Positions 20,129 through 37,069 of a stretch of DNA of 37,069 nt are shown one piece after another. Source of the DNA: Candidatus Limadaptatus stercorigallinarum (lineage in GTDB: Bacteria; Bacillota; Clostridia; Christensenellales; CAG-917); assembly GCA_018714975.1 (NCBI GenBank), contig DVMN01000029.1:1-37069 (forward strand). Direction: 5' to 3'. The number at the start of each line of letters is the position of its first letter. Within the stretch, counting starts at the first letter, position 1. The translations under genes were made by a program, and so were the position numbers. The notes under the pieces were generated by a model. It made no database searches. It had not been told where the DNA came from and saw nothing but the letters and a program-made list of their open reading frames with translations.

Positions 20129-20614
20129 ATGAAAATAAAACCCAGAACCAAGAAAGTGTTAGTGTTGTCGGTGATGGTTGCGCTGCTCGTTGCCACCGGC
20201 GTCCTCAACTGGGCGCTCAACGACAGACTTTCGTCAAACGAACCCATCGACGCGGGCGTGGTGACCGAAACCTTCTTTGCCGCTTACCGCAGCGACAGAG
20301 AAGCCACGAGAGAGTCCGAATTCCTCTATCTCGACGCCATCATCACTTCCGAAACCAGCTCCGCCGAAGCGAAATCCGCCGCGGAAGAACAGAAACTCGA
20401 CCTCGTCGAGCGTATGGAAACGGAAATGCAGCTTGAAACCCTCGTCAAATCCAAGGGCTTCGAGGACGCAATCGTGACTATGAGCGACAGCGGCGTGAAC
20501 GTCGTCGTGGGTGCTGCGGAACTCACTGCGGAACAGGCCGCACAGATTTACGACATCATTCAGTCCGAAACCACGTTCAAGGCGGCGGATGTCAAAATCA
20601 TTCCCTACAACTGA
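20129..20614 (+). CDS. spoIIIAH: stage III sporulation protein AH
   Basis: TM, FFAAYRSDRE, ETLVKSKGFEDAIV; GGAGG SD before ATG 20129. Confidence 0.9.
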   Translation: MKIKPRTKKVLVLSVMVALLVATGVLNWALNDRLSSNEPIDAGVVTETFFAAYRSDREATRESEFLYLDAIITSETSSAEAKSAAEEQKLDLVERMETEMQLETLVKSKGFEDAIVTMSDSGVNVVVGAAELTAEQAAQIYDIIQSETTFKAADVKIIPYN

Positions 20615-20684
20615 ATCGATATGCGGCAAGAGGGCGTGCCTGACTCAAAGTGCGCGCCATTCCGCATTTTCCGCATAGCAAGGT

Positions 20685-20728
20685 AAAAAAATGCTCCGCA
20701 ATGACATCTCTGTCATTGCGGAGCATTT
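20685..20728 (-). terminator. distal terminator of the tRNA-Leu transcript, also facing spoIIIAH
   Basis: Perfect 18-bp stem AAATGCTCCGCAATGACA-tctc-TGTCATTGCGGAGCATTT with an A7 run on plus (U7 on minus). Confidence 0.8.
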
Positions 20729-20966
20729 GGTGCGCGGGACGGGACTTGCTCCGCGCTCGCTATGAAGTGATGCGGACTGCGGTTTGCGGATGACATCTTC
20801 CTCGTTCGGCTGTGCTTTGCTCGCGCTATCACGCCGGGGCAGAACAACAGCCAATCCGTAGGCTGTTGTTTTTTCTGCCCGTTCAAGCCCCGCCCCTTGA
20901 CAAATTAAATGCTCCGCCACGACAGAAATGTCATTGCGGAGCATTTGGTGCGCGGGACGGGACTTG
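20689..20966 (-). repeat. tRNA-Leu 3'-end plus terminator duplication with a 218-bp period
   Basis: 38-bp exact direct repeat at 20711-20748 and 20929-20966 (about 60 bp with 6 mismatches); inverted T-arm-region copy at 20881-20896. Confidence 0.9.
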
Positions 20967-21033
20967 AACCCACATGAACGTATTGTTCACTAGAACCTGA
21001 ATCTAGCGCGTCTGCCAATTTCGCCACCCACGC
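20946..21033 (-). tRNA. tRNA-Leu (anticodon CAG)
   Basis: GCGTGGGTGGCGAAATTGGCAGACGCG-CTAGA-TTCAGGT-TCTAG, long variable arm, GGTTCAAGTCC, encoded CCA. Confidence 0.96.
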
Positions 21034-21051
21034 ACGGGTGATTGCTTGTAG

Positions 21052-21080
21052 ATTATATTCCAAGCGTCTTGTCATGTCAA
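21052..21080 (-). promoter_or_regulatory. consensus sigma-A promoter of tRNA-Leu
   Basis: TTGACA-17 nt-TATAAT on the minus strand. Confidence 0.88.
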
Positions 21081-21169
21081 ATGATTTTGACGGGACGGCG
21101 GAAAAACTTGTGCGGCGGATTGTGTTGCGGCTATGGTGCGGAGGCGCGGCGCGCTTTGGGCGCACGGGG

Positions 21170-23731
21170 TCAGTCGGAGCGGAGCATTCTGTCTTCGCGG
21201 CGGCGGTATCTTGCGGTGGAAACCTGCACAAAGGCGATGATATGAGAAACAATCCAGAGGAGTACGAATATGCCCGTTGCCGCGGCGGCAATCACCGCGC
21301 TTTCGGGGCTGAACTCCGCCGGCGACAGGAATTTGTCCACGACCTGAGCTATTCCGCGTGAAGCGCCTTCGGCGAGAAACGCAAACAGCAGTCCGACGGA
21401 AAATCCGCCGACGGCAAGCAAGGCGGTTTCCGCGAGGATGTAACGCAAAGCGTCCGAGAAAGTCATTCCCGCGAGGCGGAAAACGTCGAACTCTTTTTTT
21501 CTTTCGCTTGCCGTGATGACGATAAGGTTTATAAGTCCGACGGCGGCAACGGTGTAGATGATGAGAGAAAAGACCGAAAGCAACTGCTGTGTATCGAGTG
21601 CGCCCGACGTTTCGAGAGGGAAGTAGCCGCTGTTTCTGAACAATGTTGTCCATTCGGTGTCTATCTCGTCGCGAATCTGTGCAAATGCCGATTCGTCGCC
21701 GTTGAGATAAATGGTATATATGGGGGTCAACGGCACGGATTCGTAATCCATATCGCCGGCATATATCATTGCGTAGTAATCCCACGCCGTGACAGAGTCG
21801 TCGATTCCCACCACGGTGAAAGTCGAGCCGACGGGACCGTAGCCGAGATAAGTCGTTGCCAGCAGCATCACTTCGTCGCCTATCGAAAAGCCGTATTGGT
21901 CGGCGAGATAGCGTGTGAGGACGATGGGGCGGCTGCCGTCCGCCACGGCTTTGTCGAAACGCTCGATGACGTCTTCGCCGATAGGTTCGAGGCAGCAGAA
22001 GTCGAGTGCCGCTCCCGTTTGTACGGTAAGCATACGAATAGACGCGTCTATTGAAGTTTCACCCACGGGCGTCCCGTCGGGATACGCCAAAGTGACATTG
22101 TTGTGTTGTCCTATCAATGCTCCCGAAGTTATGCCGTCGACGGCAAGGCAACGCTCCAATTCCTGTTCGTACGTTGCGGGGGAGAGGTTGTCGACTTTGA
22201 CGACGAAATCCGAGTCGTATCGGGCGGAAGAAGAGGCGCCCGTTAATGTGACGATGTCGATGAGGCAAGTGCCGAGCCAGATAAAGGCTATGAGGGCGGC
22301 AAGCATTGTGAAGACCGAGTTAACCGACGCATTTCGCGGGGCGGCATACTCCGCGACAAGTTCCGCTCCCGAACGCGTGAATTTGCGTGCGACAAAACAC
22401 AGCGCACGCAAAACCGAGGGCATCACCGTCAGCAGCCAGACGAGCAGCAGAGCTACCGCCGCAAACGACACGGGCAAAAGAGCAGACGTCGGCACGGTAA
22501 AAACGGCGATTGCAACGGCGAGCGCGGCGGCAGTAATCACCAATGCGACAGGCAGAGGGAGGTGTTTTTTTATGCGTTCGGTTCCGCCGAGCAGTCTGTG
22601 TATGGGACGGACGCTCATACGGACGGCGGGGATAAAACAGGCGGCAAGTCCGCACGCCGCTCCGATAAATAGCGCGAGCACATAGTCCGTCGCGACGGGC
22701 GTTATCACTGCGGACGTGACGTTTTCGGCAACGAGTCCGTTGAGATAACCCACGAGCCCTTGTCCGAGCGCAAGACCTATCAACCCGCCGACGATGACAT
22801 ATACTGCCGCTTCCGAAAGCAGAATGAACACGGATTGAGCGGGCGTTGCTCCCGCGGCTTTGAATTTTACGAGTTCGCCGACTCTGCTTCTCACTATGAC
22901 GGAGAACGATGAGCAGAGCAGGCATACCATAACCACGGTTATGACGGCGGCGGCGATGTTCATCATCCGCATACTTTCGCCGACGGATTCCGCCGCGTCC
23001 GCAAAGCTGTCGCGGGCGGAAACGACAACCGCGCTACGGTCTTTTATTAACGCGCCTACCTCGTCGGCATATGCGGCGGTGTTTTCTTTTCCGTCAGCGT
23101 TCAGCGCATACGGGTCGTTGAACCAGACGTTGAAACGGATGCCAATCGTGGCAGCTTCCAAATCGATTTCGCAGGAGAATGTCAGGTCCGGGTTGGGGTA
23201 ATAGCAGGATGTATCGGCGCATATCGCTTCGACAAAGAATGTTCCGCTGTTTTTGATGTCGAACAAATCGCCCGCATCGAGTCCGGCTGTCCGCGCCAAC
23301 GACAGCGAGATATGTGCGGAGGGGAATTCGGTAGTGTTTTCGGCGTAAGACAAGACCGTCGCGCCGACCTGTTCGTCGAATTCGTCCAGAGTGCCGTATT
23401 CGACGCCGAGCCGTCGGGCGTTGATTGTTTCGTCGTCGACGATTACGATTGCGTCGATTTCGCTGAGCACGGTGTAGGCTTCGATTTCGTCGGAATGTTC
23501 TTCTATCCACGCGAGCACGGTTTCCCTGTTGTCCGCTCCCGCATTAATGACCATCTGCGAGCCGACATAGTATTTGTTTGCCCAAAGCGAGGTCGTGTAT
23601 TCGAACATCGACGATATGCAAAGGCACACGAGGATGCAGGCGGTTATCATTGCCGTCGAAATCATTATGATGACCGACTGCACGGGATTGCGGGCAATGC
23701 TTGCGAGAGTGTGGCGGAGGAGTATGTTCAT
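21170..23731 (-). CDS. ABC transporter permease, FtsX/MacB family with two repeats
   Basis: Two extracellular domain plus FtsX segments (RVGELVKFKAAGAT; ERKKEFDVFRLAGMT); overlaps the ATPase stop. Confidence 0.9.
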   Translation of the reverse strand: MNILLRHTLASIARNPVQSVIIMISTAMITACILVCLCISSMFEYTTSLWANKYYVGSQMVINAGADNRETVLAWIEEHSDEIEAYTVLSEIDAIVIVDDETINARRLGVEYGTLDEFDEQVGATVLSYAENTTEFPSAHISLSLARTAGLDAGDLFDIKNSGTFFVEAICADTSCYYPNPDLTFSCEIDLEAATIGIRFNVWFNDPYALNADGKENTAAYADEVGALIKDRSAVVVSARDSFADAAESVGESMRMMNIAAAVITVVMVCLLCSSFSVIVRSRVGELVKFKAAGATPAQSVFILLSEAAVYVIVGGLIGLALGQGLVGYLNGLVAENVTSAVITPVATDYVLALFIGAACGLAACFIPAVRMSVRPIHRLLGGTERIKKHLPLPVALVITAAALAVAIAVFTVPTSALLPVSFAAVALLLVWLLTVMPSVLRALCFVARKFTRSGAELVAEYAAPRNASVNSVFTMLAALIAFIWLGTCLIDIVTLTGASSSARYDSDFVVKVDNLSPATYEQELERCLAVDGITSGALIGQHNNVTLAYPDGTPVGETSIDASIRMLTVQTGAALDFCCLEPIGEDVIERFDKAVADGSRPIVLTRYLADQYGFSIGDEVMLLATTYLGYGPVGSTFTVVGIDDSVTAWDYYAMIYAGDMDYESVPLTPIYTIYLNGDESAFAQIRDEIDTEWTTLFRNSGYFPLETSGALDTQQLLSVFSLIIYTVAAVGLINLIVITASERKKEFDVFRLAGMTFSDALRYILAETALLAVGGFSVGLLFAFLAEGASRGIAQVVDKFLSPAEFSPESAVIAAAATGIFVLLWIVSHIIAFVQVSTARYRRREDRMLRSD

Positions 23732-24435
23732 TCCGAGCGTTCCTCCGGGCGGATGCGGGAGGGGATATCCTCGGAAGAAACAATCTTGCCGTCGCTTATC
23801 GTGATGACCCGCGTGCCGTACAAAGCGTTCTTTTCGTTGTGGGTGACTTGTATGATTGTTGTGCCGAAATCGGAGTTTATCTGCGAAAGCAGACGCATTA
23901 TCCCCTCGGAATTGACGGAATCGAGGTTCCCCGTCGGTTCGTCGAGCAGTATGATTTCGGGGTGCGAAATGAGCCCGCGCGCTATTGCGATGCGCTGTTG
24001 TTCGCCGCCCGAAAGTTTGCCGGGGAGGGAGCTGCGCTTGTCGGCGAGCCCGACCAGTTCCAGAAGCGCGTCAAGGTCCTTGCCGACCGACTTTTTCCCT
24101 TTGCCGCCGAGCAGAACGGGGACGAGTATGTTTTGTTCCACGGTGAGATAAGGCGCGAGATTGAAAAACTGGAACACGAAACCTATCTTGCTGCGGCGCA
24201 GCACGGCGCGGCGGCGTTCGCCGCATTCGGTGATGTCCTCGCCGTCTACGAAAACGTGCCCTGCGGTGGGACGTTCTATGCCGCCGAGCACGGAAAGCAG
24301 GGTGGTTTTTCCGCTGCCGGACGCGCCGAGCACGGAAAGGAACTCTCCCTTTTTGACGGAGAGGTCAATGCCGTTCAGCACCGTGTCTTTGCCGTTGTAG
24401 GAATGAAAAATGCCTTTTGCGTCGATAATGCCCAT
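23728..24435 (-). CDS. ABC transporter ATP-binding protein, LolD/MacB-like
   Basis: GASGSGKTT, GFVFQFFNL, LSGGEQQR, LLDEPTGNLD; start MGIIDA. Confidence 0.95.
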   Translation of the reverse strand: MGIIDAKGIFHSYNGKDTVLNGIDLSVKKGEFLSVLGASGSGKTTLLSVLGGIERPTAGHVFVDGEDITECGERRRAVLRRSKIGFVFQFFNLAPYLTVEQNILVPVLLGGKGKKSVGKDLDALLELVGLADKRSSLPGKLSGGEQQRIAIARGLISHPEIILLDEPTGNLDSVNSEGIMRLLSQINSDFGTTIIQVTHNEKNALYGTRVITISDGKIVSSEDIPSRIRPEERSE

Positions 24436-24492
24436 ATTTTCCCTTGAAAACCGCGGAGGCGGCAACCGTTGCCTCATCGCCGACAACATATT

Positions 24493-24521
24493 ATTTTACA
24501 CTTGCCGCCGCGGGTTTGCAA
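24493..24521 (-). promoter_or_regulatory. sigma-A promoter of the ABC pair
   Basis: TTGCAA-17 nt-TAAAAT on the minus strand. Confidence 0.6.
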
Positions 24522-24630
24522 GAGCGAACTTTGCGCGCCTGCTTGCTTTAATATAAAAAGAGATAAAATACAATAATGCTTTCGTTTTTCCGCTGCGGTG
24601 TGTTAATATGAAAAACAGGTAGCAGACGGA

Positions 24631-25197
24631 ATGAACAAAAGAAAAAGCGAGAAGATAAACGAAGCCCTCATCGGCATCAAAAACGGCAAGGCGGAATGCG
24701 TATCGGAACTTTATGTGGAGATTGCCCCCACTATGCGATACATAGCTTTGAAATACGTGCGCAACGATGCCGACGCCGACGACCTCGTGCAGGATTTCTG
24801 GGCGGACATTTACAAAATCGCTTCCGGCTTTTTCTATATGAGCAACGCTTTCGCATTTTTGTGCAAAGTCATGACCCGCAGAGCAATCAACCGTTACCGC
24901 GAGATGCACAGCGGCAGAGAAGTCAGCATAGACTTCGTCGACTATTCCGTCATTGACCGTGACGCGGAGTTCACTTTCGAACAAGCCGAGACCAAAAGCG
25001 CCGTCGAAAAGGCAATGACATCCCTCACCGACCAGGAGAAAATCGTCATCCAGGAAACTTATTTCGAGGAGAAGACTTTGCGCGCCATAGCGCACGATAT
25101 GAAACTTTCCGTGCAGCAGGTTTCGAGGCTGAAAACGGACGCGATGGAAAAAATGAAGAAAAATTTTGAAAAAATGCGAGAAAAAAGCGGTGGCTGA
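24631..25197 (+). CDS. ECF-type RNA polymerase sigma factor
   Basis: Region 2 (DADDLVQDFW...FAFLCKVMTRRAINRYR) and region 4 (LTDQEKIVI...KTLRAIAHDMKLSVQQVSR), 188 aa. Confidence 0.9.
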   Translation: MNKRKSEKINEALIGIKNGKAECVSELYVEIAPTMRYIALKYVRNDADADDLVQDFWADIYKIASGFFYMSNAFAFLCKVMTRRAINRYREMHSGREVSIDFVDYSVIDRDAEFTFEQAETKSAVEKAMTSLTDQEKIVIQETYFEEKTLRAIAHDMKLSVQQVSRLKTDAMEKMKKNFEKMREKSGG

Positions 25198-25224
25198 TTT
25201 GTTATATATACGGAGGACAGAAAA

Positions 25225-26106
25225 ATGAAAGCACAATCAATCAAAAATTTTGCAATCCGTATCACGGTTTTCGCGCTGCTTCTCGCGGTGGCGCTCGGCG
25301 CGACGTATTTCCTTTTCGCGGCGATAGGACAGGCGGGAACGGACGTCGCGCAGGCGGAAGAAAAACGCTATTGCGATAGCAGCTATCTCGGGGCGGGCAG
25401 TTACGTCACGCAGACGGAAACCGTTTCTTACGCCACGAAATCGACGTCGAGAAACACCATCGGCAGCTCTTTTCCCGCCTATTACAACACCGTCGCTTCC
25501 GTGACGGACAACTGCGCGGGCGTTGCGGGTGCTATATTGATGGGGTATTACGACAGATATCACGCCGACCTCATCCCCGGGACGGCGACAGGGTCGGGGA
25601 GATTTTCTTATAAATACTTTGAGCAATCTCAAATCCAAAGTTACGTGCAGGCGGTCATCAACGGTTTTTATGACCTTATGAACGTGGGGCAGGATGCCGC
25701 GGGCGCGTCGCGTCAGGATTACATAGACGGACTGACTTCTTACGTTGCGTCCAAGGGGTTGAGCATTTCGTTCGGTTCGGTGATGACGGGCGGTGCGATT
25801 GACCTGGCGAAGCTCGACACGGCAATCTCCGCGGACCGCCCCGTTTCGATTTTCATGAGCGGGTTCGGCATCACCACGTCCATAACCGACAACGGTTCTT
25901 CCGCCGTCTACACCAAGCGCGTGTATGCGGGTTCCGCACACATAATGATAGTCTACGGCTACGAAAACGTGGAATATTACAACGCGGCGGGACAGCTCGT
26001 TGCGACGAAGCTCAATCTTCTCGTGTCCACGGGGTTGGCGAATGTTAGCGGTTATGTGACCGTAGGCACGGGCACGATAGACGCGGCGGATTATGCCGCA
26101 ATATGA
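25225..26106 (+). CDS. exported putative papain-fold cysteine peptidase (C39/C10-like)
   Basis: Signal/TM segment at the N-terminus; NCAGVAGAILMGYYD (Cys at a helix start) and SAHIMIVYGY (His strand); GGAGG SD. Confidence 0.6.
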   Translation: MKAQSIKNFAIRITVFALLLAVALGATYFLFAAIGQAGTDVAQAEEKRYCDSSYLGAGSYVTQTETVSYATKSTSRNTIGSSFPAYYNTVASVTDNCAGVAGAILMGYYDRYHADLIPGTATGSGRFSYKYFEQSQIQSYVQAVINGFYDLMNVGQDAAGASRQDYIDGLTSYVASKGLSISFGSVMTGGAIDLAKLDTAISADRPVSIFMSGFGITTSITDNGSSAVYTKRVYAGSAHIMIVYGYENVEYYNAAGQLVATKLNLLVSTGLANVSGYVTVGTGTIDAADYAAI

Positions 26107-26122
26107 CCTTGAAAGGTGAAGA

Positions 26123-26896
26123 ATGGATGACAGAAAATTCGACGAAACGATGCGTTCCTATGTCGCATCCACGGCAAAGGGCGAAGAGCACGACCTTGCA
26201 AAGCTGAAAGCGGAGGAAAAGCCGAAAAAGCGCCGCTTGCAGCTTTCGCAATGGCTGCCTGCCGTTGCGGCTGTCGTAGTGGTGGCGGTCACGCTCTCCG
26301 TGTGCCTGCCGTTGACGCTGGCTGCGGAAGGTGACGACCCGCATTATGAATCCGGGGACAGCTTTTACGACGCGGACTTTATTTCCCTCGACGACGTTTC
26401 GCAGCTGGAAGAAGTATACGGCTTTTCTATGATGATACCCGATATCGTCGTGGAAACGCAGATTTACGCGACTGCGATAGTGGATTCGGAGGACGGGACG
26501 TTTTACGGCGGAAGGCTGAGTTTTCTGCCTGTCGACTGGGCTTTCGGCGGTGTGGAATGTACGGCGGTCGGCGAAGGGAAACAGTATGACTGGCAATGGG
26601 ACGTGGACACGTCGTATGCCCGAAAATGCGACTGGCACGGCACGGAGGTTTATTTCACCGTGGCTACATATTGGGACGAGTCGACATCCGGCACCGAATT
26701 GATAGAATTGCATCGGTACAGAATTAAATTCACTTTTGACGGGTTGGATTATCATATAGAATTCGACTTTTTCCCGATAGATTTGGAGGAGGACGGAATT
26801 ACGCCGCCGTCCACGCCCGAAGAGGAGGTTGTGCTTGCGTTGGATATGCTGTTTTCCTATTTCGGAGGGGACGCGGAAAGCGGCGACGCAGAATAA
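26123..26896 (+). CDS. single-pass membrane protein, putative anti-sigma factor
   Basis: Short cytoplasmic N-terminus (MDDRKFDETMRSYV), basic patch, one TM, acidic extracellular domain; linked to the ECF sigma. Confidence 0.55.
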   Translation: MDDRKFDETMRSYVASTAKGEEHDLAKLKAEEKPKKRRLQLSQWLPAVAAVVVVAVTLSVCLPLTLAAEGDDPHYESGDSFYDADFISLDDVSQLEEVYGFSMMIPDIVVETQIYATAIVDSEDGTFYGGRLSFLPVDWAFGGVECTAVGEGKQYDWQWDVDTSYARKCDWHGTEVYFTVATYWDESTSGTELIELHRYRIKFTFDGLDYHIEFDFFPIDLEEDGITPPSTPEEEVVLALDMLFSYFGGDAESGDAE

Positions 26897-26948
26897 CGTC
26901 CGCTTCCGTGACGGCACGGAAATGTCTGCCCGCGGAGCGCGAAATGCG

Positions 26949-26976
26949 AAAGAAAACCGAAATTTCGGTTTTCTTT
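26949..26976. terminator. perfect 28-bp palindrome, probable terminator
   Basis: AAAGAAAACCGAAA|TTTCGGTTTTCTTT. Confidence 0.6.
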
Positions 26977-27040
26977 TCATTCCTCGCACAACCCGCGCAA
27001 GCATAACGAAAAGGAATAGTATACGATAATAAATAAGCAT

Positions 27041-27068
27041 TTGACATAGCCGCGCGCGGTGCTATAAT
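27041..27068 (+). promoter_or_regulatory. sigma-A promoter of the flavoprotein operon
   Basis: TTGACA-16 nt-TATAAT with TG extension; GGAGGT SD downstream. Confidence 0.85.
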
Positions 27069-27086
27069 CGTGGCGGAGGTGCGGGT

Positions 27087-27620
27087 ATGAAAATATTGGT
27101 GCTTGCGGGCAGTCCGCACAAGAACGGGACTTCGAACACCCTCGTGCGGGAATTCGCAAGAGGCGCGGAGGAAGCGGGACATTCCGTGAAGATTTACGAT
27201 GCCGCAAAGGGAAACATCCGCCCGTGTCTGGGGTGCGACCGCTGCGGTATGGCAGGGGACTGCGTTCAGAAAGACGACGGAAACGCGGTGCTTGCGGAAC
27301 TGCTTGCCTCGGATATGGTGGTGTTTGCGACGCCCGTCTATTATTTCGGAATGAGCGCGCAGCTGAAAACCGTCGTCGACCGTTTTTATGCGCGCAACGG
27401 CGCAATCACGAGCAAACATATGAAAGCGGCGCTCATTGCGACCGCTTGGAACGACGACGACACCGTGATGAAAGGCGTGGAAACCTCTTTCGACATAATA
27501 TTCGGTTATCTGTCGTTCAAGGATATGGGGCGTGTGCTCGCAAAGGGAAGCGGCACTGTTTCGATGATGCCGCAAAAATATCTGCGGCAGGCTTATCTGC
27601 TCGGGAAAAATCTTGTCTGA
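27087..27620 (+). CDS. flavodoxin-fold iron-sulfur flavoprotein / NAD(P)H-dependent FMN reductase family
   Basis: LAGSPHKNGTS, PCLGCDRC...C, FATPVYYFGMSAQLK. Confidence 0.88.
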   Translation: MKILVLAGSPHKNGTSNTLVREFARGAEEAGHSVKIYDAAKGNIRPCLGCDRCGMAGDCVQKDDGNAVLAELLASDMVVFATPVYYFGMSAQLKTVVDRFYARNGAITSKHMKAALIATAWNDDDTVMKGVETSFDIIFGYLSFKDMGRVLAKGSGTVSMMPQKYLRQAYLLGKNLV

Positions 27621-27632
27621 CAGGAGGCTTTT

Positions 27633-28385
27633 ATGGACAGAGTGGAAAGATGCGAAGAAAAATTTGCGGAACTCTTCGGCGGCAAGCCCGTGACGAATGA
27701 GGGGAAAGACCCCGAATTTATGCGCATATTGCAACGGTTCATTTTCGGCGAGGTGTGTTATACGGGCTCGCTTGACAACCGTATGCGCGAGCTTATCACC
27801 GTCACCGTGCTGACGGTCAATCAGACTCTTCCGCAGCTGGAATCGCACACCGCGGCGTGTCTGCATATCGGCGTTTCGCCTGCGGAGATAAGGGAAGTCG
27901 TATATCAATGCGCGCCTTTTGTCGGGTTCCCCAAGACGCTGAACGCAATCGCCGTCATTGACAAGGTGTTCGAGGCGAACGGGATTTCTCTGCCGCTCGA
28001 AAACGCGGAAACCGTGACGGAGGACACAAGACTTGCCGAGGGCGTGAAATTGCAGGAGGCGGTGTACGGCACGGAAATCAAGGAAAGATACGCGTGGCTG
28101 CCCGCCGAGTTTGCGGAGGCGGTGCCGCGCTTCCTCTCCGGGCTGGGCTTCGGGGATTTTGCGACGCGCAAGGGGCTTTGCGCCAAGGACAGGGAGCTGC
28201 TCACCGTCGTCATTCTCGCGGCCGTCGGCGGCGCCGAAACGCAGGTGCGCTCCCACGTTGCGGGCGCGCTGAAAGTCGGCTGTTCCAAAGAGGAAGTGGT
28301 GTGCGCACTCGTCCACGCAATGCCGTATATGGGCATTCCGAGGTTGTTCAATGCGCTCAACTGCGCGAAAGAACTGCTGGTTTAA
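27633..28385 (+). CDS. carboxymuconolactone decarboxylase family protein with two CMD domains
   Basis: LDNRMRELIT...H...G...YQCAPFVGFP and a second copy, DRELLT...H...PYMGIPR. Confidence 0.88.
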   Translation: MDRVERCEEKFAELFGGKPVTNEGKDPEFMRILQRFIFGEVCYTGSLDNRMRELITVTVLTVNQTLPQLESHTAACLHIGVSPAEIREVVYQCAPFVGFPKTLNAIAVIDKVFEANGISLPLENAETVTEDTRLAEGVKLQEAVYGTEIKERYAWLPAEFAEAVPRFLSGLGFGDFATRKGLCAKDRELLTVVILAAVGGAETQVRSHVAGALKVGCSKEEVVCALVHAMPYMGIPRLFNALNCAKELLV

Positions 28386-28408
28386 CTGTTCGTTCAGGAG
28401 GTATAAAC

Positions 28409-28837
28409 GTGGATTACAAGCAATTCGAGAAGCAGAACGTGTTCGGGCTCGGCAGCGAGAACACGGCGTTTGCACAGTATTTCATCGGCAAATCTTATCT
28501 CAATCCCCTGACCGTCCCCAGGACGGGGAAACCTTTCTTTGCCAACGTGACGTTCGAGCCGGGATGCCGCAACAACTGGCACACCCATCACGCCTCCGAA
28601 GGCGGCGGGCAGATTTTGCTTTGCGTCGCGGGAGAGGGCTGGTATCAGGAATGGGGCAAAGCTCCGCGCTCCCTTTCGGCGGGCGACGTGGTCGAAATCC
28701 CGGCGGAAGTGAAACATTGGCACGGGGCGAAAAAGGACAGCTGGTTTTCGCATATCGCGGTGGAAGTCCCCGGCAAAGATACGCATAACGAATGGCAGGA
28801 AGCCGTCACCGACGAAGAGTACGGCAAACTCGACTGA
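28409..28837 (+). CDS. cupin domain protein
   Basis: VTFEPGCRNNWHTH, GQILL, KHWHGA; GGAGG SD with GTG start. Confidence 0.9.
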   Translation: MDYKQFEKQNVFGLGSENTAFAQYFIGKSYLNPLTVPRTGKPFFANVTFEPGCRNNWHTHHASEGGGQILLCVAGEGWYQEWGKAPRSLSAGDVVEIPAEVKHWHGAKKDSWFSHIAVEVPGKDTHNEWQEAVTDEEYGKLD

Positions 28838-28857
28838 CGGGACGTTTAGGAGGGAAA

Positions 28858-29436
28858 ATGACGCTTGAAGAATACAAAAAATTCGTTGCCGGAAGGAATT
28901 TCATCGCGCCGGGTTCGGAAGCGAGCGCCGTTATGCGGCCGTTTGCGAGGGAAGCGCAGATGATAACCGCCGAAATAAACAACTCTTACCACACCGCCGA
29001 GGAGCTCCGCGACCTTTTCTCACGGCTGACGGGAAGGGAAGTCGACGAGAGTTTCGCCCTCTTTCCACCGATATACACCGACTTCGGCAAGAACATCACG
29101 GTGGGCAAAAACGTGTTTATAAACTCGGGCTGCTGTTTTCAGGACCAGGGCGGAGTGGAAATAGGCGATGACTGCCTCATCGGGCATCAGGTCGTCTTTG
29201 CGACGCTCAATCACGCCCTCGACCCCGAACTGCGTGCGGGGATGTGTCCCGCGCCCATTAAGCTTGGGAAAAACGTCTGGGTGGGTTCTCACGCGACGTT
29301 GCTTGCGGGAGTGACCGTGGGCGACAACTCCGTCATCGCCGCGGGAGCGGTGGTGACGCGCGACGTGCCCGCAAACACCGTGGTAGGCGGAGTCCCCGCA
29401 AAGGTCATAAGGCACATCGAACACGACGGAGAGTAG
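28858..29436 (+). CDS. sugar O-acetyltransferase (hexapeptide repeat, Maa-like)
   Basis: DFGKNITVGKNVFIN, hexapeptide repeats, GVPAKVI. Confidence 0.9.
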   Translation: MTLEEYKKFVAGRNFIAPGSEASAVMRPFAREAQMITAEINNSYHTAEELRDLFSRLTGREVDESFALFPPIYTDFGKNITVGKNVFINSGCCFQDQGGVEIGDDCLIGHQVVFATLNHALDPELRAGMCPAPIKLGKNVWVGSHATLLAGVTVGDNSVIAAGAVVTRDVPANTVVGGVPAKVIRHIEHDGE

Positions 29437-29569
29437 GTTTTCCGCCGCTGCGGTGATTTTGCCGTTCGTCCGCCTGTGCTGCGGACGAATTTCTTTTTGC
29501 CGCTTTATTTTGCGGCGGTCGGGTTGCGCGCGGGCGGGCATTGTGATATACTGCTTTCACGGTGAATTT

Positions 29570-29914
29570 ATGCCCAAAGAAATGAATGCGAAGAATTTGT
29601 CGGTGTTTTCCGACGTCATAATGTCGCTGGCGTCCGACGCGGCGGCGGAGGTGGAGGGAGTGGAAGTGCTGCGCTCGCGCGACTCTTCCAAACGTGCCAT
29701 ACGCGGCGGCGGCGTTTCCGTCTATTTTCTGCCCAACGACAAGGTCGCCGTGGACGTTTTCGTCAATGTCAATTATCCCTGCCGCGTGCCCGAAGCGGTT
29801 GCAGCCGTTCAGCTGCGCGTCAAGGAAGAGATAGAAAATGCGACGCGCTTCCGCGTGCACAGCGTCAACGTGCAGGTGGTGAGCGTGCTTTTCCCCACTC
29901 AGACGGATATATGA
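29570..29914 (+). CDS. Asp23/Gls24 family protein (YqhY-like)
   Basis: AAAEVEGV, VDVFVNVNY, VQLRVKEEIE; directly upstream of nusB; promoter TTGCGC-17-TATACT at 29524-29552. Confidence 0.85.
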   Translation: MPKEMNAKNLSVFSDVIMSLASDAAAEVEGVEVLRSRDSSKRAIRGGGVSVYFLPNDKVAVDVFVNVNYPCRVPEAVAAVQLRVKEEIENATRFRVHSVNVQVVSVLFPTQTDI

Positions 29915-30315
29915 GAAGAGCAAGCAGAGAATACGTTTTCAAGTTGGTGTTCGAATACACCTTTTACGGTAAGGAAAATCCCGATACGCTGGAACTTTTC
30001 CTGACCGACGCCGACCTCGACGACGAGGACAAGGCTTTTATACGCGACTGTTACGACGGCGTGTCGGAGAACGCGGACGCGCTCAAAGCGGAGCTTGCGG
30101 GCAAGCTGGAACGCTACACCGTGGACAGGCTTTACCGTCCCGACCTCTGCGTCCTGCTCATCGCTCTTTACGAGTTGAAAAAGGGCGAAACGCCTGCGAA
30201 AGTCGTCGTCAACGAAGCGGTTTCCCTTGCCAAAAAGTACGGCACGGAAAAATCGGGCGCGTTCGTAAACGGCGTTCTGGCGAAGTTTGTCCGCGAGAAC
30301 GGGCAAAGCGCATAA
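29911..30315 (+). CDS. nusB: transcription antitermination factor NusB
   Basis: RRASRE, VVNEAVSLAKKYG...FVNGVL. Confidence 0.95.
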   Translation: MRRASREYVFKLVFEYTFYGKENPDTLELFLTDADLDDEDKAFIRDCYDGVSENADALKAELAGKLERYTVDRLYRPDLCVLLIALYELKKGETPAKVVVNEAVSLAKKYGTEKSGAFVNGVLAKFVRENGQSA

Positions 30316-30345
30316 TGCGCTGATTTCAAGGTTTATTGCGTTAAA

Positions 30346-31551
30346 ATGACAGCACAGAACCCGATTTCGGAAAAAGCAATCAGCGTCACGGAGCTCAATG
30401 CCACGCTCAAAGCGTGTCTGGACGCGCCTATTTTCCGCGGGCTGGAAGTGTTCGGGGAAGTGTCGGGTGCGCGTATGAGCGGCGCGCATCTTTATTTTAC
30501 GCTGAAAGACAGAGAGTCGCAGATACAGTGCACCTCTTTCAATGCGGCGCGCACTTATATCCCGAAGGACGGAGAGAGCGTCATCGTCCGCGGCAGCGTG
30601 GATTACTGGACGAAGGGCGGCAGGCTGTCCTTCGTCGCGTCCGCAATCACTCCCGCGGGGAAGGGGTTGCTCGCAATCGAGTTCGAAAGACTGCGCGCAA
30701 AACTTGCGGCGGAAGGGCTTTTCGACGAAAAACACAAAGTTCCCGTGCCGAAGTTTCCGAAGGACGTGCTCGTCGTGACGTCAAAAACGGGCGCGGTCAT
30801 CCGCGACATCGTCACCACCGTCCGCAGAAAGAACCCCGTCATCAACATCGCCGTGCGCGACGTCAGGGTGCAGGGCGAAGGGGCGGCGCACGAGATTGCG
30901 GGAGTGCTCCGCAGGGTGGACGCTCTCGGCTATGACGTGGTCATAATCGCAAGAGGCGGCGGGTCGCTGGAAGACCTTGCGCCGTTTTACGACGAGGAGC
31001 TCGTCAGGGCGATTTACGATATGAAGACCCCCGTCGTTTCCGCCGTCGGACACGAAACGGACTTTTCGCTTGCGGATTTTGTTGCGGACGTCCGCGCCGC
31101 GACTCCGACCGCCGCGGCGGAGCTGGTGGCTTACGACTATTACGCTCTTGCGGACACCGTGAAAAAGTATGCCGCCGATATGAGACGCGGAGTGCTTCGC
31201 AATTTCGAAAGGAAGAGTTCGCGCACAAGCATTGCGGGCGCGGCGCTCGGCAGGCGTATGGTTTCCTTCCACACCGCGCGGGAGAACAGGGTACGCGCGC
31301 TGTCCTCGCGGCTCAGGATGCTTGCGGAGAACAAGGTCGCGGCGGCGGAGGCAAAGCTCGGAAAACTCTCGGGTATGCTGGACGCTCTCAGCCCCCTCAA
31401 AGTGCTTTCCAGAGGATATTTCAACGTGCAGGCAGCGGGCAGGAGCGTGACGTCCGTCAGAAAGCTCGCCGTGGGCGACACCGTCACGGCACGCGGCGGG
31501 GACGGCAGTTTCGATGCGCAGGTCACCCGCATCGTACCCGACGAAAAATAA
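30346..31551 (+). CDS. xseA: exodeoxyribonuclease VII large subunit
   Basis: HLYFTLKD, ARGGGSLEDL, SAVGHETD, RAATPTAAAE, LSPLKVLSRGY. Confidence 0.96.
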   Translation: MTAQNPISEKAISVTELNATLKACLDAPIFRGLEVFGEVSGARMSGAHLYFTLKDRESQIQCTSFNAARTYIPKDGESVIVRGSVDYWTKGGRLSFVASAITPAGKGLLAIEFERLRAKLAAEGLFDEKHKVPVPKFPKDVLVVTSKTGAVIRDIVTTVRRKNPVINIAVRDVRVQGEGAAHEIAGVLRRVDALGYDVVIIARGGGSLEDLAPFYDEELVRAIYDMKTPVVSAVGHETDFSLADFVADVRAATPTAAAELVAYDYYALADTVKKYAADMRRGVLRNFERKSSRTSIAGAALGRRMVSFHTARENRVRALSSRLRMLAENKVAAAEAKLGKLSGMLDALSPLKVLSRGYFNVQAAGRSVTSVRKLAVGDTVTARGGDGSFDAQVTRIVPDEK

Positions 31552-31582
31552 GTGTTCCGCATCTCGTGCGGACGGAGGCTGT

Positions 31583-31810
31583 ATGGCTGATGAAAAAATG
31601 AACAAATTCGAAGACAATCTGGCACAGCTCGAAGCGCTTGTCAGAAAGCTGGAAAGCGACGTGCCGCTCGACGAGGCGATAGCGGCGTTTTCCAAGGGGA
31701 TAGAGCTCACCAAACTCTGCATTTCCGAACTCAAAGCGGAAAAGGGCAAGCTGGAACTCCTCGTCGGGGATTTGGACAAAATCACCGAGGAATTCACTTT
31801 GGAAAAATGA
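31583..31810 (+). CDS. xseB: exodeoxyribonuclease VII small subunit
   Basis: FEDNLAQLEALVRKLE...LDEAIAAFSKG; GGAGG SD. Confidence 0.92.
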   Translation: MADEKMNKFEDNLAQLEALVRKLESDVPLDEAIAAFSKGIELTKLCISELKAEKGKLELLVGDLDKITEEFTLEK

Positions 31811-32604
31811 ACGCTTCGGATTTCCGCGCGCTTTTCGAAAAGTGTTTCTCCACGCTGTTCGACGGCTCGGAGGAGTTTGACGACGCTATGCGCTACGCCT
31901 GTTTCAGCGGAGGAAAGCGCGTGCGCCCCGTCGGAGTATATCTCGGAGCGGCTTCGGTGTCCGCCGCGCCGCCTCTCGACGAGGTGCTGAGCCTCGCGGG
32001 CGCGATAGAGCTTGTGCACAGCTATTCGCTCGTGCACGACGACCTGCCCGCAATGGACAACGACGATTACCGCCGCGGACGTCTTACCGTGCACAAGAAG
32101 TTCGGCGAAGCCGCCGCAATACTCGTCGGCGACGCGTTGCTCAGCCGCGCCGCGCAGGTGCTGGCGTCGGGAGCGGTGCAATTCGGAAGAAAATATGCCG
32201 CCGCGGCGGCGGTGATGACCAAAGCCGCCGAAGATATGGTGAGAGGGCAGGTGTACGACCTTGCCGGAATGCGCACGGAAGAGGAATTCCGAAAAATGTA
32301 TGCGTTGAAGACGGGCGCGCTCATCAGAGCCGCTTTTGTCGCGGGCGCAACGGTCGCGGGCGCGGACGACAAGCAAATCCGCCTTGTCGCGGAGTATGCC
32401 GAGGCGCTCGGACTCGGATTTCAGATTGCGGACGACCTGCTCGACGAGGGCGAGGAAAATTCTCTCGTCGCCGTCATCGGCGCGGAGCGCGGACGCAAAC
32501 TCCTCGACGAGTGCACCGAAAGAGCGGTGAGGTGCGCGGGGGGTCTTCCTTTCGGCGAAGAGCTCGCGGCGTTTGCCGAGCAACTCCGCATACGCAAAAA
32601 TTGA
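31807..32604 (+). CDS. ispA: geranyltranstransferase / FPP synthase
   Basis: GGKRVRP, SLVHDDLPAMDNDDYRRG, KTGALI, FQIADDLLD. Confidence 0.93.
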   Translation: MNASDFRALFEKCFSTLFDGSEEFDDAMRYACFSGGKRVRPVGVYLGAASVSAAPPLDEVLSLAGAIELVHSYSLVHDDLPAMDNDDYRRGRLTVHKKFGEAAAILVGDALLSRAAQVLASGAVQFGRKYAAAAAVMTKAAEDMVRGQVYDLAGMRTEEEFRKMYALKTGALIRAAFVAGATVAGADDKQIRLVAEYAEALGLGFQIADDLLDEGEENSLVAVIGAERGRKLLDECTERAVRCAGGLPFGEELAAFAEQLRIRKN

Positions 32605-32632
32605 CCCGAACGGCTTTATTTTGAAAAATCGG

Positions 32633-32661
32633 TTGCCAAAACGGCGTCCTTTTGATATATT
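32633..32661 (+). promoter_or_regulatory. sigma-A promoter of the tRNA-Gly/tRNA-Cys unit
   Basis: TTGCCA-17 nt-TATATT with TG extension. Confidence 0.7.
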
Positions 32662-32671
32662 GATAAAGCGC

Positions 32672-32746
32672 GCGGGAGTGACTCAGTGGTAGAGTGTCAC
32701 CTTGCCAAGGTGAAAGTCGCGGGTCCGAATCCCGTCTCCCGCTCCA
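32672..32746 (+). tRNA. tRNA-Gly (anticodon GCC)
   Basis: GCGGGAG acceptor, CACC-TTGCCAA-GGTG anticodon arm, GCGGG-TCCGAAT-CCCGT T arm, CCA. Confidence 0.96.
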
Positions 32747-32934
32747 AAAAAGAAAGAAGGACTCATTCGCCGTTGCGAATTCCGCGGATTGTGGATTGCG
32801 GATTGTGACGGGATGAGGACCCGGGGTCCGGCAGGTTTCCTGCCGCCGCAAACGTCGAGCAGTATAAAACGGAGCGTAAGAAAGAGAAAGACGGAAAACT
32901 GCCTGTGCGGCTATCCCGTCTCCCGCTCCAAAAA
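32729..32934 (+). repeat. tRNA-Gly 3'-end duplication with a 184-bp period
   Basis: ATCCCGTCTCCCGCTCCAAAAA at 32729-32750 and 32913-32934; inverted GACGGGAT at 32807-32814. Confidence 0.88.
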
Positions 32935-32938
32935 GCAC

Positions 32939-33013
32939 GGCACCATAGCCAAGAGGTAAGGCAAGGGTCTGCAAAACCCTCATTCTCCGGTTCAAATCCG
33001 GATGGTGCCTCCA
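32939..33013 (+). tRNA. tRNA-Cys (anticodon GCA)
   Basis: GGCACCA acceptor, AGGGT-CTGCAAA-ACCCT anticodon arm, CCGGTTCAAATCCGG, CCA. Confidence 0.96.
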
Positions 33014-33017
33014 AACG

Positions 33018-33055
33018 AAAAGCGGTATCTTATGCGATACCGCTTTTGCTTTTTT
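33018..33055 (+). terminator. terminator of the tRNA unit
   Basis: AAAAGCGGTATC-ttatgc-GATACCGCTTTT followed by GCTTTTTT. Confidence 0.85.
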
Positions 33056-33228
33056 CGGCGTTCTGTCTTATGAAGTTTCGGTTTCCCGTGCGGTCGGTGC
33101 GTGATGCCGCAGCTGCCGACTTGTTTGCAATTCCGTTGACTTGCCGCCGTTTTGAGCAAGTCGCATTGAAAAACCCGACAGAGTTCATTATAATAAAACC
33201 GAAGTATGATGTTTCATTGCTTATAAAG

Positions 33229-33924
33229 ATGAGGTACTGCATTTCTGACATCCACGGAGAATACGATTTGTTTTGTCGGCTGATGGAATATGTGAAATTT
33301 TCCGACAGCGACGAGCTTTTCGTGCTCGGAGATATGACGGACAAGGGAAACGACACGGTCGCGCTTTGCAACCTTCTGCGCAACGTGCCGAACATACATT
33401 GCATACTCGGCAATCACGAGTGCGATTTCCTGAAAGCGTATCACGGGCTGATGAAAAATTCCGACGGCGATTTCGACGAAGTGTCGGACGCCTTGCGCCG
33501 CTATTTCCCGGGGGACGGCAAAGATATGAGCTTCGATATCGTGGATTGGCTGGACTCCCTGCCTCTTTATTTCGAGGAAGAGGACTTCATCGGCGTTCAC
33601 GCTTCCGTGGGGATGGATGAGAGCGGAGCGGTGCTGCCTTTTTCCGAAACGCCTTATGAGGAATTCGTATATTCGCGCGCGCTCAACGGCAAGGATGTGT
33701 TCCCGCGGGATGCGAAATGTATAGTTTTCGGGCATACGCCCGTGAGAAACATTTCGGGTGACGACAGATTTTTGTTTTATCCGCGCAGCGAAGAAGCCGC
33801 CTACAGCCGCGACATCCGCGATTACTGCAAAATTCATATCGACACGGGCGTCTACCTCGGCGGCATCCTCGGCTGCCTTTGCGTCGACGATTGCACCGCC
33901 TACTACCTGAAACGGAAACTTTAA
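33229..33924 (+). CDS. calcineurin-like metallophosphoesterase (PrpA/ApaH-like Ser/Thr phosphatase)
   Basis: SDIHG, LGDMTDKG, GNHE, VHA, FGHTP, IDTG; promoter TTGAAA-17-TATAAT at 33166-33194. Confidence 0.9.
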   Translation: MRYCISDIHGEYDLFCRLMEYVKFSDSDELFVLGDMTDKGNDTVALCNLLRNVPNIHCILGNHECDFLKAYHGLMKNSDGDFDEVSDALRRYFPGDGKDMSFDIVDWLDSLPLYFEEEDFIGVHASVGMDESGAVLPFSETPYEEFVYSRALNGKDVFPRDAKCIVFGHTPVRNISGDDRFLFYPRSEEAAYSRDIRDYCKIHIDTGVYLGGILGCLCVDDCTAYYLKRKL

Positions 33925-34010
33925 TCGCCCGCTGACTACGGTTAAACCATCCCGATTCCGTTGCCGATACGTTCTGCACCGCGACGGAATCGTCAGCCGG
34001 CATTTCCGAG

Positions 34011-34299
34011 CTCGCGTCAGCAAAAGGTGAGAGGGACACCTCGGAAAAGAAAAACTCCTCAACAAGAGGAGTTTTTTGGTGCCGGTGGTGGGACTCGTAA
34101 GGAGCGGAGGCGCGACGGAACAGCGAGGATGAGAGGCGGGAATAAACGGGTGCAGGACGATAGGGAGGGAAGACAACAGCGGCAATTTACGGAAAAACGG
34201 GTGTGGAGAAAGCCGTTTGCCGAACAACTCGCGTCAGCGAAAGGTGAGAGGGACACCTCGGAAAAGAAAAACTCCTCAATAAGAGGAGTTTTTTGGTGC
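34011..34299 (-). repeat. 72-bp direct repeat (terminator plus GCACCA) with a 217-bp period, including an orphan tRNA-Leu-like 3' end
   Basis: 34011-34082 vs 34228-34299 with 2 mismatches; minus strand CGAGTCCCACCACCGGCACCA at 34077-34097; AAAAACTCCTC-n-GAGGAGTTTTT hairpin in each copy. Confidence 0.9.
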
Positions 34300-34587
34300 A
34301 GAGTGCCGGAATTTGTACGAACACAGAGGGAAAGAAGAAGCAGATCGGGAAGCCTCCCCGACCTGCTTTTCCAATTGCTCGACATAGGATTTGCAGAATC
34401 TGTCCGTCGTAGCATACTCTTGAAAGTTGTAAGTGATGACGATGTGGTCGCCGTACCAGAGGATGTCGCGGATAAAGGTGTTGACGAGCAGTTTGCGTAT
34501 TTTGATATCGTCCGGGTCTTCAAAGACTTTGGAGAGCAGATGCTTTTCCACGTCTTCCACGGTAACACGCATATAGGCTTTCTGCGT
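34276..34587 (-). pseudogene. C-terminal remnant of a large serine recombinase, reading across the att junction
   Basis: TVEDVEKHLL...RKLLVNTFIRDILWYGDHIVITYNF...CSY...SAP resembles clostridial LSR C-termini; in-frame TAG just upstream and no catalytic domain. Confidence 0.65.
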
Positions 34588-34661
34588 CTATTCGTATATA
34601 AGTAAAATATATGTTCAATCGCTATATTAAAAAACATATAATTTTGTTTTCTGTTGAACAG

Positions 34662-35798: not shown

Positions 35799-35919
35799 CC
35801 GTATCTCCTTCTGCGTAAGACAATAACTTAATTCTCCATCATGCAAACGGAGTAGTATGTTTATCTCGGTATGTTTTTTAGATGAAGCAACATATAAACT
35901 TTTTCTGTGGGCTATTGTT

Positions 35920-36387: not shown

Positions 36388-36417
36388 AATAATTTGATCC
36401 TCCTTGTTTCTTATATT

Positions 36418-36642: not shown

Positions 36643-36667
36643 TTGCTCCTCCTTTATTTGTAGCTCA

Positions 36668-36712
36668 ATTATACGAAACAAATTCGCTGTTGTATACGAC
36701 AAATTTTGTCGT
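36668..36712 (-). promoter_or_regulatory. promoter of the XRE operon with an adjacent palindromic operator
   Basis: TATAAT (36668-36673), weak -35 TATACA 17 nt upstream, palindrome ACGACAAAtTTTGTCGT (36696-36712) abutting the -35. Confidence 0.55.
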
Positions 36713-36748
36713 GTTCCATTAGGCTTTTAAAGGATAATAAGTTCTTGA

Positions 36749-37051: not shown

Positions 37052-37069
37052 CAAAAACGCCTCTCATGA

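Follow-up and report, generated by a model that had tools for sequence, protein, structure and literature searches.

Non-coding units that end in a second copy of a tRNA 3' end recur behind tRNA genes in Candidatus Limadaptatus stercorigallinarum, and three of them lie in the contig analyzed here (DVMN01000029.1 of assembly GCA_018714975.1; contig C2), whose entire 37,069 bp are referred to as the window. The source assembly (G000; 1.50 Mb in 127 contigs, an estimated ~81% complete) was compared with 14 congeners, giving 15 genus genomes altogether (designated by G-numbers). The comparison showed that the units are discrete insertions, which are present in one and absent from another close relative, stack in tandem and close kilobase islands with their cores, and that these cores are conserved as base-paired structures. 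With a probability of roughly 0.45, we interpret the units as non-autonomous insertion modules of tRNA and transfer-messenger RNA (tmRNA) 3' ends. In each, an inverted tail copy (X'), a core and a direct tail copy would form a folded cis site, and one core type (type B) would be read through as trailer RNA.

Three tRNA genes were identified in the window using ARAGORN and Rfam: tRNA-Leu(CAG) (20946–21033, minus strand; Rfam tRNA 48 bits; perfect promoter-like site at 21080–21052), the parent of unit 1; tRNA-Gly(GCC) (32672–32746, plus strand), the parent of unit 2; and tRNA-Cys(GCA) (32939–33013, plus strand). The initial annotation had described three repeat pairs with periods of 218, 184 and 217 bp, and all coordinates and periods were confirmed. 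The Leu-CAG pair (20689–20748 and 20907–20966; 60 nt, 90% identity, period 218) consists of the final 21 nt of the tRNA followed by a hairpin terminator. The tail of tRNA-Gly(GCC) (32727–32746) recurs at 32911–32930 with 18/20 nt matching and a period of 184; this repeat comprises the final 18 nt of the tRNA, and the unit lies between tRNA-Gly and tRNA-Cys. The third, Leu-like pair (34011–34082 and 34228–34299) is a 72-nt repeat of 97% identity with a period of 217. Its parent tRNA had been placed outside the window; indeed, neither ARAGORN nor Rfam found one there, and its position would be past the end of the contig. Two loci, Leu-CAG and the Leu-like site, have a duplicated terminator, as had been proposed.

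To determine the genome-wide extent of the units, the 42 predicted tRNAs were each represented by their final 20 nt, and the complete assembly was searched for these 20-mers with a tolerance of 2 mismatches. A second tail was detected 148–229 nt downstream of 8/42 tRNAs (Arg-CCG, Leu-CAG, Gly-GCC, Pro-GGG, Pro-CGG, Gly-CCC, Val-GAC and Ser-TGA), and diverged or partial second tails were seen at four more (Ser-CGA, Asn, Trp and Arg-CCT, the last with 87-nt mini-units whose "core" is only ~19 nt). Because we estimate that only ~0.005 copies per 20-mer with up to 2 mismatches are expected by chance in 3 Mb of two-strand sequence, this recurrence is far above chance. Overall, units lie within 250 nt of at least 12 of the 42 tRNA genes, three tRNAs being too close to contig ends to be judged. 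Single units and unit arrays were also observed at many contig ends of the assembly (the starts of C34 and C45, the ends of C70, C93 and C108, and C121). The unit repeats probably break the assembly and hide further copies, which would explain part of the bad assembly of these genomes.

The units share a common order, which reads, in the sense of the tRNA, tRNA-CCA, hairpin terminator, 10–15 nt spacer, X', core and tail copy to CCA. X' is the reverse complement of the first 8–13 nt of the tail, and its end coincides exactly with the start of the core. The tail copy runs from a fixed T-loop position (~57 in type A) to CCA; in types B and C its start is fixed as well, each at its own point. The terminator is missing from the Gly-GCC unit. 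The closing stem formed by X' and tail covaries with tRNA identity in types A and B. A search for inverted tail copies downstream of every tRNA located X' only at tRNAs with units or unit remnants, the exceptions to strict co-occurrence being array-end remnants and tRNA-Thr(CGT). At tRNAs without units, the best X'-like complement was no better than in shuffled sequence, and X' was thus ruled out as a native feature of tRNA trailers. In the window, the inverted tail copy that had been reported for two units was found in the Leu-CAG unit (13 bp) and the Gly-GCC unit (9 bp), and is weak at the third site. At tRNA-Thr(CGT) (G000 C99:5700–5835, minus strand), we observed a terminator and X' (11/12 matched) followed by AT-rich DNA with no core. 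The genes in this DNA specify a membrane-less FtsH-like AAA protease and proteins that gave no Pfam match, and no second tail of this tRNA was found in the G000 assembly.

The units encode no protein. No credible frame was found inside the 148–229-nt units, which are crossed only by long overlapping frames of the open reading frame list; no internal promoter-like site was found in any window unit, and the cores are conserved as base pairs. The earlier statement that the units lack an open reading frame or integrase therefore holds for their interior, but a serine-recombinase fragment adjoins the third unit (see below). Heptamer arrays had also been regarded as a shared feature. They do exist at two units (TGCGGAC/TGCGGTT/TGCGGAT at 20771–20791 in Leu-CAG; GCGGATT/GTGGATT/GCGGATT at 32784–32804 in Gly-GCC), but they are not kept in other type B copies and look incidental. 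Treating the three loci as a single sequence family also failed: their cores are unrelated, and what the loci share is a general architecture rather than a core family. The proposal that a common architecture at different tRNAs is not a set of random scars was borne out by further tRNAs and tmRNA, by all 15 genus genomes, by covariation and by presence/absence.

The Leu-CAG unit carries the type B core and lies on the minus strand. A tRNA-proximal hairpin with an imperfect stem and a broken T-run (20907–20946), which was not scored as a terminator, is followed by X' (20884–20896), the 5' arm of a 13-bp closing stem with 20736–20748 in the minimum-energy fold. The core (20749–20883) contains a long hairpin, a CCCGGCGTGATAGC block and a GCGGAG end. 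The second copy of the final 21 nt of tRNA-Leu(CAG), up to CCA, occupies 20728–20748, and the distal terminator (20689–20728), a perfect 18-bp stem followed by a T-run, is the top terminator-like site of the region. The single-sequence fold of this unit gave z = -5.43. In addition, the loops of the two Leu-CAG terminators (20907–20946 and 20689–20728) are mutually reverse-complementary while their stems are the same, and the duplicated terminators of the Pro-GGG units on C70 and C108 likewise have reverse-complement loops on the same stems. These inverted loops are the footprint of an intrastrand template switch or an inverted copy.

Type B is known at six kinds of tRNA. We aligned 14 complete copies from nine genomes, which follow Leu-CAG, Leu-TAG, a Leu-CAA-like tail, Gly-CCC and Glu-CTC; the sixth kind is represented by a Ser-GGA copy that was seen but stands outside the alignment. 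Using a plain MAFFT alignment and the RNAalifold structure, 95.7% of pair cells were standard, compared with 83.9% in column shuffles and 41–46% with slid partners. Compensatory, both-side changes were present in 15/33 pairs, and the observed score was reached by 0/500 shuffles. The pair columns of the Leu-CAG-type X' covary with tRNA identity in the 14 members. Helices 1–3 contain 13 G.U against 3–4 A.C on the tRNA-sense strand, and type B holds an invariant U.G pair; this G.U excess fits RNA, or top-strand DNA.

The type A core is represented in the window only by a weak, degenerate member, at the third locus (minus strand; fold z = +0.59). Here, a long degenerate core (34097–34261) ends in GCTGTTCCGTCGC-N-GCTCCTTAC and was recognized by R1, a type A covariance model built from 10 copies (match 34077–34261, 39.9 bits, E = 6.5e-8). 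The conserved blocks of type A are GCTGACGCG, A-CAGATG, GCT(A/G)TTCCGTC and TCCTTAC, with hairpins between them. At E <= 0.001, R1 returned 142 matches in 15/15 genus genomes, from 1 to 28 in each. In an even sample of the order, 8/151 genomes matched at E <= 1e-5, including G000 and one congener, the rest belonging to three families. Other uncultured Clostridia records contain a shorter version of this core. A pattern scan of contig records for the type A end motif yielded mainly chance hits, along with at least ~20 true hits in Candidatus Coproplasma, Christensenella sp., Christensenellaceae, uncultured Clostridia and a few oddly binned records. None of 33 stretches from an exact-pattern scan of viral contigs for the same motif passed as a unit, a scan that diverged copies may escape.

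Placement was evaluated for 99 type A matches in the loci examined (97 distinct rows). Half of them (50/99) terminate no more than 300 nt from a tRNA or tmRNA on the same strand and 17/99, in arrays, at 301–800 nt; 14/99 have no tRNA or tmRNA within 1000 nt, and 18/99 could not be judged. Type A adjoins 22 kinds of tRNA or tmRNA. In its alignment, 84.3% of pair cells were standard, compared with 64.2% in column shuffles and 35–43% with slid partners; 30/32 pairs showed both-side compensatory changes, and 0/500 shuffles reached the observed score. This alignment was fitted to the model and is thus biased toward structure, but the effect size and the slid controls argue that the pairing is real. 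Scans of the window at the Rfam gathering threshold, and of both window units and seven other unit loci by E-value, passed only tRNA; the best non-tRNA match over a core (24 bits against a 42-bit cut-off) is at chance level. A likeness of the type A motifs to hammerhead or group II intron sequences, judged by eye only, was dropped.

The Gly-GCC unit (plus strand) has the third type of core, type C. Its leader (32747–32806) has no terminator and contains the three GGATTG-type heptamers at 32784–32804. X' (32807–32815; GACGGGAT, complementary to tail ATCCCGTC) forms a 9-bp closing stem in the fold, and the core (32816–32912; fold z = -2.46) is followed by the second copy of the final 18 nt of tRNA-Gly(GCC) (32913–32930), with tRNA-Cys next at 32939. 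The core is an orphan, with no DNA relative in 14/14 other genus genomes. No weight was given to the stretches of this unit that RNA contigs leave uncovered, nor to a joint from 32748 to 32939, whose short side is 50 nt and which involves tRNAs conserved across species.

The insertion behavior of the units was revealed by comparison of filled and empty sites, both of which were found at Leu-CAG. In an RNA-library contig whose flank matches the window at 98.5% identity, 20686 is immediately followed by 20907, so that the 220-bp Leu-CAG unit is missing. In G002, tRNA-Leu(CAG) is followed by a type B unit, a short type A unit and then the sequence that directly follows this tRNA in G004. In G000 the tRNA is followed by type B alone, and in G009, G012 and G013 by an island end instead. 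Arrays of 2–4 units are common, for example in G007. Near-identical cores (97–100%) occur within arrays (G007 and G009) and, at one locus of G009, at the ends of kilobase islands. In G009 C5:4000–33500, two stretches are delimited by three type A cores that have Tyr tails and are 98–100% identical: the first, of 23.6 kb, contains type IV pilus-like genes and a 1087-aa serine recombinase, and the second, of 3.2 kb, is AT-rich. The second tail of tRNA-Ala(GGC) lies 5.8 kb away, at the far end of an AT-rich island closed by a core; no recombinase-like open reading frame was seen in this island by eye, its frames not having been run against Pfam. At the ends of arrays, the repeat is limited to the 20–22-nt tail in about ten loci, and at others it extends through terminator, X' and up to ~100 nt of core, that is, a truncated last unit. 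Within G000, comparison of C116:5497–6700 with window 20400–21000 revealed a second spoIIIAH end that is 76% identical. The complete end of a serine-recombinase island is likewise present on C116, together with a type B unit and a Leu-CAG tail, and the assembly seems to hold the Leu-CAG locus from two related organisms, or a large duplication.

Among the three options raised by the initial annotation, non-autonomous tRNA-associated elements fit these data best. In this model, each module would bring a hairpin terminator, X', a folded core of some family and a tail copy, and a recombinase acting in trans would insert it site-specifically at the T-loop or 3' end of the tRNA. The inserted DNA would restore the tRNA end and push the old end downstream, and X', tail and core may act in cis as a site that is read single-stranded. 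Copies could spread within a locus by unequal crossing-over, and cores could be homogenised between loci by gene conversion. The duplicated tails double as extra landing sites for serine-recombinase islands. The Leu-CAG type, in addition, may be read through from the tRNA promoter to give a structured trailer RNA with a free ..NCCA end. Such read-through is plausible, since the unit contains no promoter-like site of its own, the T-run of the proximal hairpin is lost and the distal hairpin forms a perfect terminator. The Leu-CAG core is covered by contigs of three RNA libraries from two studies, one of which spans 20738–20966. The neighboring ftsX had zero cover in its nearest ~1.1 kb and traces farther out in four RNA runs.

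Several observations weigh against this interpretation. Crossover in the T-loop with an element-borne proximal arm predicts that an empty Leu-CAG allele carries the distal version of the terminator, but the allele found carries the proximal version. The Arg-ACG and Arg-CCT arrays of G007 share cores at 94% identity, a variant carrying a 330-nt insert among them, but each locus has a terminator, X' and tail of its own; either the cores have undergone gene conversion or they move without the rest of the unit. Nor does the model account for the match of X' to each new tRNA. Truncated last units are frequent, with breakpoints that differ between arrays (repeats extending 27–123 nt, and up to ~230 nt at two array ends, rather than 20 nt), and several tail copies lack CCA. 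Type A shows no sense-strand wobble bias (G.U 62, A.C 92), which speaks against a tRNA-strand RNA for this family; its folding may be at the DNA level. RNA-library contigs cannot prove transcription, show RNA ends or exclude DNA carry-over. Serine-recombinase islands, for their part, have their junction at a different place from the units: they end ..GTTCGTACAAATTCCGGCACTC(T/C) and abut GCACCA, 5–6 nt from the tRNA 3' end. Finally, no recombinase was tied to the units in the five genomes checked for enzymes (G000, G005, G007, G009 and G010), where only the XerS-like and serine recombinases were common to all.

These enzyme searches narrowed the candidates for a mobilizing activity. TnpB and IS110 DEDD domains were found in 0/5 genomes, the positive controls having worked, and RNA-guided readings involving a TnpB omega-RNA or an IS110 bridge RNA were ruled out. 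Rep_trans was likewise found in 0/5 genomes and a relaxase in 2/5. The RVT_1 reverse transcriptase was present in 2/5 and absent from G007, which has 28 cores, some of them near-identical, and a reverse-transcriptase reading is thereby weakened. Tyrosine recombinases were present in 5/5 genomes (1–3 each). A conserved, syntenic one, the sole tyrosine recombinase of G010, matches XerS best (175 bits, below the cut-off), suggesting a single-recombinase Xer system in the genus; in G000 this gene lies on C105 (locus L001:963–2033). Large serine recombinases occurred in 5/5 genomes (1–8 each), and a Y1 (RAYT-like) protein in 4/5, and in 9/15 across the genus.

Serine-recombinase genes adjoin units in G010, G005, G007 and on C116, and the window itself provides a case. 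At the third locus, a tRNA-Leu tail copy with one mismatch to tRNA-Leu(CAA) on contig C65 lies at 34077–34096 (minus strand). The distal copy of the 72-nt repeat (34011–34082), preceded by this full tail, comprises GCACCA, a terminator (34050–34076) and 39 nt more. The proximal copy (34228–34299) begins only at GCACCA and is preceded by an island end, ..GTTCGTACAAATTCCGGCACTCT, which is also found on C116. A 103-aa C-terminal fragment of a large serine recombinase (34276–34587, minus strand) shares 89% identity with the C-terminus encoded by a 531-aa frame of C116, in which Pfam identifies a Recombinase domain. From 34300 to the contig end at 37069 extends a low-GC island remnant (GC 0.36–0.43 compared with 0.52–0.63 elsewhere) with weak exonuclease and helix-turn-helix hits. 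Thus, 34276–37069 has a recombinase gene fragment at its end beside an attachment (att) junction, and the third locus is partly shaped by an ordinary serine-recombinase island. These islands lie in the tRNA proper, upstream of units, in G007 C6 and G000 C116, and at the duplicated tail, at the unit end, in G000 C118, G007 L237 and G008 L006. Their other end brings its own terminator. Serine recombinases were ruled out as a simple answer to what moves the units, given the junction in the acceptor strand and the islands' own ends; the islands share a target with the units rather than moving them. The spare att sites of the initial annotation are therefore seen as a side effect, the left ends of islands adjoining the duplicated tail at three loci.

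Four other readings were considered. The units could primarily be genes for structured trailer RNAs that are transcribed by read-through from the tRNA promoter and trimmed to the second CCA, insertion and loss being secondary; such an RNA would be a hairpin-closed domain with a free acceptor-strand-plus-CCA end, acting as a mimic, a decoy or a spare 3' half of the adjacent tRNA. The low fold energy of the Leu-CAG unit, covariation in both core families, the type B G.U excess with its invariant U.G pair, the missing internal promoter beside a weakened proximal hairpin and a perfect distal terminator, and the RNA-library contigs of two studies, one bridging to the tRNA, all agree with it. Nevertheless, in type A A.C exceeds G.U, the families have no core in common and one core is an orphan, some tail copies have CCA mutations or indels, and the acceptor strand is only 1–4 nt paired, so that no true minihelix forms; RNA ends are not visible from contigs. 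Co-transcribed RNA, which the initial annotation had also offered, has genuine but incomplete support, and for the Leu-CAG type only; that the units are primarily trailer RNA genes we consider rather unlikely. A further possibility, which we regard as doubtful, is that the cores are a new hairpin-dependent module class that builds its closing stem from the target, forming a tRNA-anchored cassette array analogous to an integron array. The tRNA T-arm would then be the primary site and X'-core-tail a folded secondary site, each insertion would carry the tRNA tail once direct and once inverted, and units with no dedicated integrase gene would multiply the landing sites for serine-recombinase islands.

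Alternatively, the cores could be REP-like single-stranded DNA elements mobilized or processed in trans by the HUH (Y1) transposase of the RAYT-like gene, with cleavage at ..TCCTTAC|, a fixed distance 3' of the last hairpin. The conserved small hairpin followed by 7 nt and an invariant boundary would suit such an element, as would the near parity of G.T and A.C in type A, which is expected for folding DNA. The Y1 protein best matches "REP-associated tyrosine transposase" (65 bits, short of the 80-bit cut-off), and its gene, present in 9/15 genus genomes, is a single diverging copy (two in G000). By our sum, genomes with the gene have a mean of 12 type A cores and those without it 5, counts that are confounded by completeness and kinship. 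However, G010 and G001 lack the gene yet have 13 and 9 cores, no core lies beside any of the nine RAYT-like genes examined, and IS200-type transposition is not known to make a target duplication, which leaves the tail copy and X' unexplained; this mechanism is quite unlikely. The units may instead be decay scars of integrase or serine-recombinase islands after internal deletion, the cores being mere arm sequence. In keeping with this, serine-recombinase islands use the same tRNAs, a recombinase fragment adjoins the third unit, complete islands separate tRNA-Leu(CAG) from units in G007 and on C116, and units are truncated at many array ends. Against it, unit sizes are tightly clustered, fresh tandem copies have identical cores, the interior of every unit is free of recombinase remnants, and island junctions are at a different nucleotide with different end sequences. 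Moreover, 142 cores in 15 genomes keep their pairing through compensatory changes, which neutral scars would not do, and we judge this origin very unlikely.

Two further sets of repeats were noted. The two RAYT-like Y1 genes of G000 (C66:29435–30250, minus strand, and C109:51–842, plus strand) are 58% identical, and the other positive genomes have one each. A separate REP-like palindrome, ..CCCCAC..AAAATC-NNNN-GATTTT..GGGGACCCCG.., occurs in tandem in G000 (C65:9663–9760, C120:7145, C122:6635, C127:1170, C28:40300 and C32:16308) and is inserted into some units (L008, L009, L013 and L242); the RAYT-like gene may in fact belong with this palindrome. A further trailer module lies directly after CCA at at least five tRNA loci or tail copies of G000 (C1:991, C12:234, C34:232, C116:6158 and C124:6), in the order CGTCGCCGCAAGGC with a small GCAA-loop hairpin, ..GCAACA, terminator hairpin and TTTGC.

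We compared the units, read as insertion modules, with known systems. Williams reportedly described, in 2002, islands integrated in tRNA and tmRNA genes with a regenerated gene and a displaced 3' fragment. Genomic islands in these genes are likewise described as flanked by the regenerated gene and the displaced fragment (PMC9897764; PMC4383910). The units resemble such islands in the direct repeat of the 3' end from the T-loop, found at 8/42 tRNAs, in the intact gene, in tandem arrays and in a state that varies between relatives, with filled and empty sites. They differ in being 130–230 bp long with no integrase inside and no cargo, and in their covarying core and adjacent inverted tail, neither of which is a described island feature. 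Streptococcal cis-mobilizable elements (CIMEs) are att-flanked elements without recombination or transfer genes (PMC5704250; PMC7563491). Like the units, they are non-autonomous and lie at tRNA genes, and they would depend on the recombinase of a resident element. CIMEs are known as deletion derivatives of a known integrative and conjugative element or integrative and mobilizable element, with which they share att arms. For the units, in contrast, no parent element with these cores was found, and the cores are structurally conserved over dozens of loci; among the loci examined, which cover a fraction of the islands, no recombinase-bearing element had a type A or B core as its arm.

Folded single-stranded recombination sites are represented by integron attC and the attP hairpin of CTX phage. 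Like them, the units have an imperfect inverted repeat around a variable or structured middle part, covarying structure and arrays beside a fixed primary site, but their stem is built from target sequence and the boundary is at the apex of the stem, not at its base. No integron integrase was found, the XerS-like protein giving only a weak, sub-threshold match to integron integrase (62 bits against a 265-bit cut-off). REPINs conserve the inverted repeat, vary in the loop and have a RAYT transposase as partner. The units are likewise short, non-coding, lineage-specific hairpin repeats, tens per genome, alongside a single-copy Y1 gene (NF047646 hit). They differ from REPINs in that the core is conserved and the inverted repeat varies, in being tied to tRNA ends and in an unflanked Y1 gene: nine RAYT-like loci contained 0 core matches, and the gene occurs in 9/15 genomes compared with 15/15 for the cores. 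Small RNAs (sRNAs) are cut from tRNA 3' trailers, the 3' external transcribed spacers, and a non-coding product made 3' of a tRNA from the tRNA's own transcript would be similar. To our knowledge, trailer sRNAs have no second tRNA tail and no inverted copy and are not insertion-polymorphic repeat families, whereas the units carry a second tail and an inverted copy and are insertion-polymorphic. A search of the literature, with the supplements of papers outside its reach, gave no description of such units.

If the units are mobile, elements of ~100–200 bp with only a folded site and a replacement tRNA end can colonize tRNA 3' ends, and candidates this small are discarded by island finders. An inverted and a direct target copy around a conserved folded core correspond to no described mechanism, and working out that of the units could uncover an unrecognized mode of selecting or copying insertion sites. 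Should the RNA reading hold, a dozen loci of a small genome are given over to mimics of tRNA tails, and an unrecognized level of tRNA biology, or of defence against tRNA-targeting agents, would be indicated. Under either reading, the duplicated tails change the places where serine-recombinase islands land.

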